Of a stretch of DNA of 64,000 bases, positions 56,628 through 62,578 are shown in pieces. The position numbers and the translations under genes were made by a program. The notes under the pieces are model-generated. The model did no database searches. It saw only the letters and a list, made by a program, of their open reading frames with translations, and was not told the origin of the DNA. Origin of the DNA: Escherichia coli (lineage in GTDB: Bacteria; Pseudomonadota; Gammaproteobacteria; Enterobacterales; Enterobacteriaceae); assembly GCF_044647545.1 (NCBI RefSeq), contig NZ_CP172818.1; one strand, given 5' to 3'. Numbering within the stretch: the first letter of the stretch is position 1; each line of letters opens with the position of its first letter.

Positions 56628-56644
56628 ATCAGAATTCTCTTTAA

Positions 56645-56680
56645 AAATTTATGGGCCGCTTCAGGCCCATAAATTTTTAC
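56645..56680 (+). terminator. Intrinsic terminator after cydABX-ybgE
   Basis: aaatttatgggcc-gcttca-ggcccataaattttt. Confidence 0.65.
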
Positions 56681-58366: not shown

Positions 58367-59632
58367 GTGTCAAAGGCAACCGAACAAAACGACAAGCTCA
58401 AACGGGCGATAATTATTTCAGCAGTGCTGCATGTCATCTTATTTGCGGCGCTGATCTGGAGTTCGTTCGATGAGAATATAGAAGCTTCAGCCGGAGGCGG
58501 CGGTGGTTCGTCCATCGACGCTGTCATGGTTGATTCAGGTGCGGTAGTTGAGCAGTACAAACGCATGCAAAGCCAGGAATCAAGCGCGAAGCGTTCTGAT
58601 GAGCAGCGCAAGATGAAGGAACAGCAGGCTGCTGAAGAACTGCGTGAGAAACAAGCGGCTGAACAGGAACGCCTGAAGCAACTTGAGAAAGAGCGGTTAG
58701 CGGCTCAGGAACAGAAAAAGCAGGCTGAAGAAGCCGCAAAACAGGCCGAGTTAAAGCAGAAGCAAGCGGAAGAAGCGGCAGCGAAAGCGGCGGCAGATGC
58801 TAAAGCGAAGGCTGAAGCGGATGCAAAAGCTGCGGAAGAAGCAGCGAAGAAAGCGGCTGCAGACGCGAAGAAAAAAGCAGAAGCAGAAGCCGCCAAAGCC
58901 GCAGCCGAAGCGCAGAAAAAAGCCGAGGCAGCCGCGGCGGCACTGAAGAAGAAAGCGGAAGCGGCAGAAGCAGCTGCAGCTGAAGCAAGAAAGAAAGCGG
59001 CAACTGAAGCTGCTGAAAAAGCCAAAGCAGAAGCTGAGAAGAAAGCGGCTGCTGAAAAGGCTGCAGCTGATAAGAAAGCGGCAGCAGAGAAAGCGGCAGC
59101 CGACAAAAAAGCAGCAGAAAAAGCGGCTGCTGAAAAGGCAGCAGCTGATAAGAAAGCAGCGGCAGAAAAAGCCGCCGCAGACAAAAAAGCGGCAGCGGCA
59201 AAAGCAGCAGCTGAAAAAGCCGCTGCAGCAAAAGCTGCCGCAGAGGCAGATGATATTTTCGGTGAGCTAAGCTCTGGTAAGAATGCACCGAAAACGGGGG
59301 GAGGGGCGAAAGGGAACAATGCTTCGCCAGCCGGGAGTGGTAATACTAAAAACAATGGCGCATCAGGGGCCGATATCAATAACTATGCCGGGCAGATTAA
59401 ATCTGCTATCGAAAGTAAGTTCTATGACGCATCGTCCTATGCAGGCAAAACCTGTACGCTGCGCATAAAACTGGCACCCGATGGTATGTTACTGGATATC
59501 AAACCTGAAGGTGGCGATCCCGCACTTTGTCAGGCTGCGTTGGCAGCAGCTAAACTTGCGAAGATCCCGAAACCACCAAGCCAGGCAGTATATGAAGTGT
59601 TCAAAAACGCGCCATTGGACTTCAAACCGTAA
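58367..59632 (+). CDS. tolA: Tol-Pal system protein TolA
   Basis: 421-aa ORF with N-terminal anchor, long Ala/Lys/Glu-rich helical domain II and C-terminal domain III; GTG start. Confidence 0.95.
   Translation: MSKATEQNDKLKRAIIISAVLHVILFAALIWSSFDENIEASAGGGGGSSIDAVMVDSGAVVEQYKRMQSQESSAKRSDEQRKMKEQQAAEELREKQAAEQERLKQLEKERLAAQEQKKQAEEAAKQAELKQKQAEEAAAKAAADAKAKAEADAKAAEEAAKKAAADAKKKAEAEAAKAAAEAQKKAEAAAAALKKKAEAAEAAAAEARKKAATEAAEKAKAEAEKKAAAEKAAADKKAAAEKAAADKKAAEKAAAEKAAADKKAAAEKAAADKKAAAAKAAAEKAAAAKAAAEADDIFGELSSGKNAPKTGGGAKGNNASPAGSGNTKNNGASGADINNYAGQIKSAIESKFYDASSYAGKTCTLRIKLAPDGMLLDIKPEGGDPALCQAALAAAKLAKIPKPPSQAVYEVFKNAPLDFKP
59035..59250 (+). repeat. Tandem coding repeats in tolA domain II (KAAAEKAAADKKAA units)
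   Basis: Repeated gctgctgaaaaggcagcagctgataagaaagcggcagca-like units; encodes reiterated AEKAAADKKAAA. Confidence 0.8.
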
Positions 59633-59764
59633 TCGCGATGTTGACTGTTCCGACGGTCAACATCAGGCACCGGTTGCCACGGGGTTCTGGTAGTTTTGTG
59701 TATTTTAGTTTGTTAACATTCTGCTAAATTATCGTGGGCCATCGGTCCAGATAAGGGAGATATG

Positions 59765-61057
59765 ATGAAGCAGGCATTACGAGTAGCATTTGGTTTTCTC
59801 ATACTGTGGGCATCAGTTCTGCATGCTGAAGTCCGCATTGTGATCGACAGCGGTGTAGATTCCGGTCGTCCTATTGGAGTTGTTCCTTTCCAGTGGGCGG
59901 GCCCTGGTGCGGCACCTGAAGATATTGGCGGCATCGTTGCTGCCGACTTGCGTAACAGCGGTAAATTTAATCCGTTAGATCGCGCTCGTCTGCCACAGCA
60001 GCCGGGTAGTGCGCAGGAAGTACAACCAGCTGCATGGTCCGCGCTGGGTATTGACGCTGTAGTTGTCGGTCAGGTCACTCCGAATCCGGATGGTTCTTAC
60101 AATGTTGCTTATCAACTTGTTGACACTGGCGGCGCACCGGGTACTGTACTTGCTCAGAACTCGTACAAAGTGAACAAGCAGTGGCTGCGTTATGCTGGTC
60201 ATACCGCCAGTGATGAAGTGTTTGAAAAACTGACCGGCATTAAAGGTGCGTTTCGTACCCGTATTGCCTACGTTGTTCAGACCAACGGCGGTCAGTTCCC
60301 GTATGAACTGCGCGTATCTGACTATGACGGTTACAACCAGTTTGTCGTTCACCGTTCACCGCAGCCGCTGATGTCTCCGGCGTGGTCACCAGACGGTTCT
60401 AAACTGGCTTATGTGACCTTCGAAAGCGGTCGTTCCGCGCTGGTTATTCAGACGCTGGCAAATGGCGCTGTACGTCAGGTGGCTTCATTCCCGCGTCACA
60501 ACGGTGCACCTGCATTCTCGCCAGACGGCAGCAAACTGGCATTCGCCTTGTCGAAAACCGGTAGTCTGAACCTGTACGTAATGGATTTGGCTTCTGGTCA
60601 GATCCGCCAGGTGACTGATGGTCGCAGTAACAATACCGAACCGACCTGGTTCCCGGATAGCCAGAACCTTGCATTTACTTCTGACCAGGCCGGTCGTCCA
60701 CAGGTTTATAAAGTGAATATCAACGGCGGTGCGCCACAACGTATTACCTGGGAAGGTTCGCAGAACCAGGATGCGGATGTCAGCAGCGACGGTAAATTTA
60801 TGGTAATGGTTAGCTCCAACGGTGGACAGCAGCACATTGCCAAACAAGATCTGGCAACGGGAGGCGTACAAGTTCTGTCGTCCACGTTCCTGGATGAAAC
60901 GCCAAGTCTGGCACCTAACGGCACTATGGTAATCTACAGCTCTTCTCAGGGGATGGGATCCGTGCTGAATTTGGTTTCTACAGATGGGCGTTTCAAAGCG
61001 CGTCTTCCGGCAACTGATGGACAGGTCAAATTCCCTGCCTGGTCGCCGTATCTGTGA
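59765..61057 (+). CDS. tolB: Tol-Pal system periplasmic protein TolB
   Basis: 430 aa from [21 protein letters not shown]; beta-propeller. Confidence 0.95.
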
Positions 61058-61622: not shown

Positions 61623-62414
61623 ATGAGCAGTAACTTCAGACATCAACTATTGAGTCTGTCGTTACTGGTTGGTATAGCGGCCCCCTGGGCCGCTTTTGCT
61701 CAGGCACCAATCAGTAGTGTCGGCTCAGGCTCGGTCGAAGACCGCGTCACTCAACTTGAGCGTATTTCTAATGCTCACAGCCAGCTTTTAACCCAACTCC
61801 AGCAACAACTCTCTGATAATCAATCCGATATTGATTCCCTGCGTGGTCAGATTCAGGAAAATCAGTATCAACTGAATCAGGTCGTGGAGCGGCAAAAGCA
61901 GATCCTGTTGCAGATCGACAGCCTCAGCAGCGGTGGTGCAGCGGCGCAATCAACCAGCGGTGATCAAAGCGGTGCGGCGGCATCAACGACGCCGACAGCT
62001 GATGCTGGTACTGCGAATGCTGGCGCGCCGGTGAAAAGCGGTGATGCAAACACGGATTACAATGCAGCTATTGCGCTGGTGCAGGATAAATCCCGCCAGG
62101 ATGACGCAATGGTGGCATTTCAGAATTTCATCAAAAATTACCCTGATTCAACTTACCTGCCAAACGCCAATTATTGGCTGGGTCAGTTAAACTACAACAA
62201 GGGTAAAAAAGATGATGCGGCGTATTATTTTGCTTCGGTAGTGAAAAACTATCCGAAGTCACCGAAGGCTGCAGATGCGATGTTTAAAGTCGGCGTCATC
62301 ATGCAGGACAAAGGTGACACCGCAAAAGCGAAAGCCGTATACCAGCAGGTTATCAGTAAATACCCTGGTACTGATGGCGCTAAACAGGCGCAAAAACGTC
62401 TGAACGCGATGTAA
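61623..62414 (+). CDS. cpoB: Cell division coordinator CpoB (YbgF), TPR protein
   Basis: 263-aa ORF with signal peptide, coiled coil and TPR repeats; last gene of the tol-pal cluster. Confidence 0.9.
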   Translation: MSSNFRHQLLSLSLLVGIAAPWAAFAQAPISSVGSGSVEDRVTQLERISNAHSQLLTQLQQQLSDNQSDIDSLRGQIQENQYQLNQVVERQKQILLQIDSLSSGGAAAQSTSGDQSGAAASTTPTADAGTANAGAPVKSGDANTDYNAAIALVQDKSRQDDAMVAFQNFIKNYPDSTYLPNANYWLGQLNYNKGKKDDAAYYFASVVKNYPKSPKAADAMFKVGVIMQDKGDTAKAKAVYQQVISKYPGTDGAKQAQKRLNAM

Positions 62415-62578
62415 TGCATAACACACGACCAGAAGTCGCATTATTTCTGGTCGTGTCGTGCGAATCATAAGCAGTTGAGTGATCTACATCGAAATTTTTG
62501 TTGCGCTCAAGTCTGAAATCAGTAATATATGCCGCCGTTGCCACGGGATATCAAACAAACCGAAAGCAACGAAAAAGT

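Follow-up and report, generated by a model that had tools for sequence, protein, structure and literature searches.

What lies between tolA and tolB in Escherichia coli, and does a stem-loop just past the tolA stop codon have a part in expressing the two genes separately? The K-12 RefSeq record annotates no feature between them. An earlier note on this DNA, made from the sequence alone, drew attention to a stable stem-loop there and proposed that it might be an attenuator or be associated with an internal promoter that separates expression of tolQRA from that of tolB-pal-cpoB. Here we describe the stem-loop and its surroundings in a window of 64,000 nt, the whole stretch of DNA that was analyzed, compare it among relatives of E. 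coli, and weigh the roles that it might have.

The tolA-tolB spacer and its hairpin

The window is from E. coli. With 401 nt around the site as a query, matches were obtained in 5425 of 5426 complete genomes (at least 99% in 5415), and the genes overlapped by these matches were tolA and tolB. In the RefSeq annotation of K-12 MG1655 (NC_000913.3), tolA occupies 776342-777607 and tolB occupies 777740-779032. Window coordinates are K-12 coordinates minus 717975, and over the 181 nt compared, a single base differs between K-12 and the window. The interval first given for the stem-loop, 59633-59764, turned out to be the whole spacer of 132 nt, and the hairpin proper spans 59637-59664. Its placement just after the tolA stop and before tolB was correct. 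The features needed to follow the spacer are these:

58367-59632, + strand, tolA coding sequence (ORF list and RefSeq K-12)
59630-59632, + strand, tolA stop codon TAA (ORF list)
59637-59664, + strand, the whole hairpin, beginning 4 nt past the tolA TAA
59637-59648, + strand, 5' arm of the hairpin, GAUGUUGACUGU, with a probability of 0.01 of being unpaired in long transcript contexts
59649-59652, + strand, tetraloop of the hairpin, UCCG (UCGG in K-12)
59653-59664, + strand, 3' arm of the hairpin, ACGGUCAACAUC, then AGGCACCG, without a U-tract
59666-59678, + strand, a small and weak second stem-loop, GGCA-CCGGU-UGCC, in the fold of 59625-59700
59753-59759, + strand, tolB Shine-Dalgarno sequence AAGGGAG (invariant alignment columns)
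59765-59767, + strand, tolB start codon ATG (invariant alignment columns)

The inverted repeat exceeded chance expectation on all measures applied, and its stem was longer than the 9 bp originally described. It has 12 bp, 11 of them Watson-Crick and one a U·G pair, around a loop of 4 nt; in the arm that had been read as ggtcaacatc, one G pairs by wobble. As RNA, a 36-nt segment holding the hairpin had a minimum free energy (MFE) of -17.2 kcal/mol, whereas dinucleotide shuffles gave -7.75 +/- 2.24 kcal/mol (z = -4.2), with 1 of 200 being equally good. The reverse strand of this segment gave a weaker fold (-14.0 kcal/mol). Bulge-free hairpins of equal stability occurred in only 0.35% of the window's 50-nt segments, while shuffling the spacer produced a perfect inverted repeat of at least 9 bp in only 0.4% of copies. 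When the hairpin was placed in transcript contexts of 168 nt and 301 nt, its arms were 99% paired in the predicted ensemble. At the site of the small second stem-loop (59666-59678), many relatives have comparable stems of 3 to 4 bp with GG-containing loops, and one rare E. coli allele disrupts one of its pairs.

Within the species, the hairpin sequence is single copy, with a median of one place per genome across 5425 E. coli genomes. Over a 51-nt segment containing it, 2048 E. coli genomes were identical to the window and 3367 (about 62%) had one differing position. In K-12 and two other genomes, all three that were sampled, this position was loop base 59651, which makes the loop UCGG. E. coli is apparently dimorphic at this base, with UCCG and UCGG forms. 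We considered attaching significance to a UNCG tetraloop and dropped the idea, since the loop is UCGG in K-12 and in most E. coli. In the stem, a rare E. coli allele changes base 59645 from C to U and so yields a U·G pair, and in two Escherichia relatives (L001 and L003) the stem changes only exchange Watson-Crick and wobble pairs.

Pairing is retained while the stem sequence is replaced

For comparison we used tolB loci from 80 Enterobacteriaceae species and located the tolA stop in each. Spacer length in this set was nearly constant, at about 120-135 nt, and the first ~40 nt were the only part of the spacer in which sequence was not conserved. Within the first 45 nt past the tolA stop, 76 of the 80 species had a fold of -8 kcal/mol or better (median, -13.3 kcal/mol). 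A strict search for bulge-free hairpins at -10 or better succeeded in 50 of 81 cases, versus 4.5% of background segments. The hairpins also kept their distance from the stop codon, with a median offset of 6 nt and an offset of 0-9 nt in 70 of 79.

The stems themselves fell into sequence types that are mutually unrelated among Enterobacteriaceae genera. Escherichia has GAUGUUGAC..., many genera share UUUUCCCCG/CGGGGAAAA, and other types are found in Kluyvera (UUUUUCGCG), the Citrobacter freundii group (GGCCCCUGA), and Kosakonia (CUUUCCUCGCG). In Pantoea, Yersinia, Edwardsiella, and Klebsiella, the same position after the tolA stop is taken by hairpins that are unrelated in sequence, and Pectobacterium has a weak hairpin, again of other sequence, just past the stop. 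Pairing has been retained through many independent sequence replacements in at least four Enterobacterales families.

The structure does not reach every species. In loci of the Kosakonia oryziphila type (L068 and L075), the spacer is only 57 nt long, the tolA stop abuts GTTTGTTAA, and the spacer lacks the hairpin as well as the upstream half of the conserved block described below. Enterobacter hormaechei/cloacae has only a weak stem. Since it is missing or weak in these few species, the hairpin is dispensable.

In the raw MAFFT alignment of entire spacers, rows were out of register, and for this reason RNAalifold missed the first hairpin. We therefore specified the structure by hand and scored it on another alignment, limited to the first 43 nt (the stop codon and 40 nt), which was a plain MAFFT alignment and not fitted to structure. 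There, the stem of E. coli and the common one share alignment columns. Pairing in register was found in 76% of cells, compared with 46-59% when the partner was slid by 1-3 columns, and the covariation score was 0.313 in register versus 0.10-0.16 when slid. Double changes were present at 10 of the 11 pairs of the aligned stem. The observed pairing and covariation values were reached in 0 of 500 shuffles, a count that carries no formal probability because the species are related.

The type of mismatch and the strand of the better fold also bear on what is conserved. Across the inner eight pairs, there were 68 G·U cells and 24 A·C cells, an A·C cell on the + strand being G·U on the opposite strand, and the + strand fold was the more stable in 61 of 78 species. 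This excess of G·U, the preference for the + fold, and changes that are confined to the loop or preserve pairs together indicate selection on pairing rather than on sequence, and on a structure of the sense-strand RNA rather than on a protein-binding DNA palindrome.

Variation of another kind was seen just upstream of the stop codon. Among close genera, and even within Citrobacter, TolA C-termini are of two kinds, ...FKNAPLDFKP and ...(I/V)KDAKLDFKL (loci L008, L010, L011, L013, L015, L017, L018, L033, L050, L053-L055, L057, L060, and L074). Such a distribution suggests that the C-terminal domain of TolA has undergone recombination or allelic replacement.

The hairpin lies upstream of the tolB promoter

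According to PMC6013679, which cites Muller & Webster 1997, at least two promoters drive transcription of the tol-pal cluster; the same source attributes an internal tolB promoter, PB, to Vianney 1996 and Muller & Webster 1997. SMRT-Cappable-seq (PMC6131387) places two transcription start sites (TSSs) for tolB-pal-cpoB in the spacer, at K-12 777700 and 777712, which are 59725 and 59737 in the window, and five more inside tolA, at window positions 59353, 59418, 59466, 59497, and 59562. The features related to these starts are as follows:

59527-59556, + strand, promoter-like site in tolA, TTGTCA-18 nt-TAAACT, sigma-70-like, the sole match of the promoter scan
59689-59734, + strand, sequence-conserved promoter block (Enterobacteriaceae alignment)
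59708-59734, + strand, GTTTGTTAACATTCTGCTAAATTATCG, unchanged or almost so across 79 Enterobacteriaceae sequences
59722-59730, + strand, TGcTAAATT, probable extended -10 element of the tolB promoter, in invariant columns
59725-59737, + strand, interval between the spacer TSSs (SMRT-Cappable-seq supplement, PMC6131387)
59735-59749, + strand, second conserved hairpin, UGGGCC-AUC-GGUCCA (RNAalifold, columns 120-135 of alignment A2)

The last ~75 nt of the spacer are highly conserved. The stretch GTTTGTTAA-ATTCTGCTAAATTATCG was invariant or nearly so in 79 sequences and is followed by a small hairpin, then by GGATAAGGGAG, and then by the ATG. Near-identical promoter blocks were also present in Yersinia, Pectobacterium, and Edwardsiella. 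Judging from its motif and from its spacing to the mapped TSS at 59737, 7 nt downstream, TGcTAAATT is probably the extended -10 element. The short spacers of L068 and L075 are in effect a natural deletion, and what they retain defines a minimal promoter region for tolB. Conservation of 59708-59734 goes far beyond the need of a -10 element, and a perfect palindrome, TGTTAACA, lies inside it at 59711-59718; from these two features, a regulator site may overlap the tolB promoter.

An internal promoter is thus borne out, both by the spacer TSSs and by PMC6013679, but the hairpin is not part of it. TSSs 59725 and 59737 lie 61 and 73 nt downstream of the end of the hairpin, which is therefore not a core promoter element, and no promoter-like match of the promoter scan overlaps it. 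PB is in the same spacer and explains the separate expression of tolB-pal-cpoB. The promoter corresponds to the invariant block at 59689-59734, whereas the hairpin lies upstream and is not conserved in sequence. Starts inside tolA have another relation to the hairpin. TSS 59562 (K-12 777537) is 6 nt past the TTGTCA-18-TAAACT site, and tolB-pal mRNAs that begin there carry the hairpin in their 5' untranslated region (UTR).

The second conserved hairpin, at 59735-59749, stands at the 5' end of the transcript from 59737, just upstream of the tolB Shine-Dalgarno sequence. It covaries over 79 species, with one pair being CG in 51, UA in 17, and UG in 11. By analogy with ompA mRNA, it may be a 5'-terminal stabilizing stem. 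The idea that upstream-spacer transcripts hide the tolB Shine-Dalgarno sequence more than the transcript starting at 59737 does was dropped, predicted accessibility being low everywhere.

No sign of a terminator or attenuator

The hairpin lacks canonical features of an intrinsic terminator. It has a stable, G+C-containing stem-loop and lacks both a U-tract and mapped 3' ends. In E. coli, there is no T in the 8 nt past the stem (tail AGGCACCG), and in the 79 homologous hairpins the number of T in these 8 nt was 0-4 (median, 1), with none having 5 or more. A terminator scan gave no match at the hairpin.

Published maps of transcript ends agree. In the Term-seq data of Adams et al. (PMC7815308, three conditions), no + strand 3' end falls between K-12 774374 and 779674, and the TRS termini table (PMC10687069) has no + strand 3' end between K-12 774654 and 778985. 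The + strand termini in that table are 774654, 778985 (weak), 779673, and 780436, none of which is in the spacer. The supplements of TERMITe hold no tolA or tolB entry. The missing 3' ends at the hairpin could be an effect of low expression. Elsewhere in the cluster, the TRS table records a weak internal 3' end at window 61010 (K-12 778985), 47 nt before the tolB stop.

The hairpin does have the form expected of a Rho-type or processed end, being stable, U-less, conserved, and at the end of a gene, and no rut site or bicyclomycin-sensitive region was found with it. The table of Rho regions (PMC7815308, supplementary file 2) lists nothing in the spacer. When sought as a Rho loading region, the RNA downstream of the hairpin proved G-rich and C-poor (C/G, 0.5-0.7), and this flanking RNA is a poor Rho substrate. 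As for attenuation, a single fold dominates, with no anti-terminator alternative, and neither a leader ORF or peptide nor a riboswitch match was found in the ORF list or Rfam. A scan of 59300-60100 with Rfam 15 at E values up to 10 returned a single chance hit (E = 9.2) elsewhere in the region.

Read-through primary transcripts from ybgC to tolB are present in the SMRT-Cappable-seq data (PMC6131387), and the hairpin is therefore no efficient stop for polymerase. With no U-tract, mapped 3' end, or Rho region, and with read-through, the proposal of an attenuator or terminator is not supported. The earlier note had named end mapping as its check, and on published maps the outcome is divided, as 5' ends occur nearby and 3' ends do not. 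We rejected the ybgC-tolA class of transcripts as proof of an end in the spacer because an end 47 nt before the tolB stop, such as that at 778985, gives an identical call.

Comparison with other hairpins

Three other stem-loops in and next to the operon provide a standard for the hairpin after tolA:

56642-56679, between ybgE and ybgC, the cyd terminator, a 16-bp perfect palindrome, TAAAAATTTATGGGCC-N6-GGCCCATAAATTTTTA
61678-61699, 56-76 nt inside cpoB, an intrinsic terminator, GCGGCCC-CCT-GGGCCGC-TTTT, with a strong 3' end at K-12 779673/4
62423-62456, after cpoB, the cpoB 3' hairpin, a 12-bp perfect stem with no U-tract

The primary 3' end mapped for the cyd operon (K-12 774654) falls at the cyd palindrome, which has the shape of a bidirectional terminator. 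In addition to the terminator inside cpoB, there is a listed Rho region at K-12 779749, and many pal transcripts evidently stop inside cpoB. Like these two intrinsic terminators, the tolA hairpin lies downstream of a gene and is a stem-loop of the nascent RNA. They have T-runs and mapped ends, however, and it has neither.

The cpoB 3' hairpin is closer in kind. Its stem is followed, 3-5 nt on, by the operon's main mapped 3' end at K-12 780434-780436 (PMC7815308, PMC10687069), and this end (62423-62461) is probably processed or of the Rho type. Because both data sets found it, ends at U-less hairpins are detectable, and the cpoB hairpin serves as a positive control. Its strong 3' ends also show that U-less hairpins act as 3'-end barriers in the same operon. 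Dar & Sorek 2018 (PMC6061677) described stem-loops that protect mRNA 3' ends, whether processed or Rho-dependent. The tolA hairpin resembles that class and the cpoB hairpin in its stable 12-bp stem, its lack of a U-tract, its place just past a stop codon, and its conservation of structure and not of sequence. It differs from the cpoB hairpin in that it has no mapped 3' ends and transcription runs past it.

Another known group consists of the REP/BIME intercistronic stabilizer hairpins, such as that of malE-malF, which are proposed as barriers to 3' exonucleases that confer segmental stability on mRNA. The tolA hairpin shares with them an intercistronic site in a polycistronic mRNA and a proposed function as a 3' exonuclease barrier. 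It differs in having no REP consensus and no Rfam match and in occurring once per genome, the median of one place in 5425 genomes being unlike REP/BIME or other families of extragenic palindromes. In contrast to the malE-malF type, the upstream genes of tol-pal are the less expressed ones.

Discussion

The spacer hairpin is best filed as an unannotated, structure-conserved stem-loop at the end of a cistron, which is a familiar class. In the searchable literature, we found no study of a tolA-tolB stem-loop or of tolA or tolB mRNA; the primary papers of 1989-1997 are outside that coverage, and an earlier mention is possible.

What might such a hairpin do? Tentatively, and with somewhat less than even confidence, we propose that it is a passive structural barrier to RNA decay at the 3' boundary of the tolA cistron. 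The hairpin forms in the sense (tolA-strand) RNA, 4 nt past the tolA stop. It is carried by read-through transcripts of ybgC-tolQRA-tolB-pal-cpoB as well as by tolB-pal transcripts started inside tolA, and it is absent from transcripts of the spacer promoters (59725 and 59737). The long mRNA would be cut or would end further downstream, for example in the AU-rich and unstructured stretch at 59690-59735. Exonucleases working 3' to 5' would then stall at the stem, and the tolQRA message would stay intact, with its stop codon, while RNA polymerase reads through. The proposal draws on the conservation of structure only, the sense-strand polarity, the linkage to the stop codon, the AU-rich stretch, and the behavior of the cpoB hairpin. 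The published end maps (PMC7815308, PMC10687069) contain no decay intermediates ending at the stem, and two data sets without a 3' end at the hairpin count against a barrier, unless tolQRA mRNA is too scarce.

Some of this evidence would also suit a hairpin that serves tolB-pal-cpoB and not tolA. As a 5'-UTR element of tolB-pal mRNAs, it would impede scanning by RNase E or the loading of Rho, and the message of the downstream genes would thereby be protected or tuned. The structure is on the sense strand and is predicted to fold autonomously in such transcript contexts, the five published tolA-internal TSSs feed tolB-pal-cpoB and put the hairpin 75-311 nt into the leader, and one of these TSSs matches the predicted sigma-70-like site. 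We still regard a 5'-UTR function as unlikely, if not negligibly so: the leader past the hairpin, G-rich and C-poor with a C/G of 0.5-0.7, is a poor Rho substrate unaided, and a hairpin that hugs the stop codon at a median of 6 nt is a better fit to a role at the end of a cistron. That closeness bears as well on translation, where the hairpin might be an insulator that keeps the 3' end of tolA off the tolB ribosome-binding site or blocks ribosome sliding or reinitiation. With the stem 0-9 nt from the stop codon in 70 of 79 hairpins, a terminating ribosome would have to melt the stem base, and in each transcript context tested, the predicted folds pair most of the tolB Shine-Dalgarno sequence. 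However, its predicted accessibility (0.06-0.30) differs little and inconsistently with and without the hairpin, the hairpin and the Shine-Dalgarno region do not covary, and insulation, purely speculative as it is, seems improbable to us.

A leaky terminator or attenuator, at which some polymerases stop after tolA and read-through into tolB-pal-cpoB is reduced, could use a stable and fairly G+C-containing stem right past the stop codon. It could also account for the ybgC-tolA and ybgC-tolB classes that SMRT-Cappable-seq gives, both from TSS 774710. Against it, neither PMC7815308 nor PMC10687069 has a 3' end or Rho region there. The U-tract is absent in E. coli and in all 79 homologous hairpins, the terminator scan is silent, and neither an anti-terminator fold nor a leader peptide was seen. 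The downstream genes of the tol-pal cluster are, moreover, more highly expressed than the upstream ones, which also counts against a leaky terminator, and we consider one quite unlikely. The hairpin might instead have no specific function and be a neutral or weakly selected by-product, such as a decayed ancestral terminator; it is dispensable in some species, and published end maps hold no experimental signal at it. That is highly unlikely for pairing that survives many independent sequence replacements in at least four Enterobacterales families, with changes within the species that fall in the loop or preserve pairing. We give least weight, close to none, to a DNA element, whether the palindrome is an operator at which a dimeric protein regulates the tolB promoter or forms a cruciform upstream of that promoter. 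The center of the inverted repeat is ~75-87 bp upstream of the mapped TSSs, and binding of CRP to the tolB promoter region of Klebsiella has been reported (PMC6985210). Yet the half-sites are wholly different between genera while the adjoining promoter is invariant, the arms on inspection are unlike a CRP site, and the ratio of G·U to A·C cells (68 versus 24) and the favored + strand fold are RNA-like. Visual inspection for motifs resembling those of CRP, sigma-E, sigma-54, and sigma-28 turned up none that was convincing.

The hairpin might also be a dedicated post-transcriptional control element of Tol-Pal, shared by the Enterobacterales, that sets the ratio of TolQRA, the inner-membrane motor, to TolB-Pal, either by blocking 3' exonucleases or RNase E in its scanning or by recruiting an RNA-binding protein specific for structure, such as ProQ, and that works together with the covarying 5'-terminal hairpin of the tolB mRNA. 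We think this rather unlikely.

The main yield of the finding is a clearer anatomy of the tolA-tolB spacer, which runs from a variable-sequence hairpin to an invariant promoter block, a hairpin at the 5' end of the tolB transcript, and the ribosome-binding site. One cluster yields the Tol-Pal subunits in widely differing amounts, and control of their ratio has been described in part, by two promoters. A hairpin at the tolA boundary could add to the subunit ratio via mRNA stability. If this is true, it would be a further example of segmental mRNA stabilization within an operon and would leave the present understanding of the system as it is. It would also be a practical caution for those who engineer deletions or fusions of tolA.
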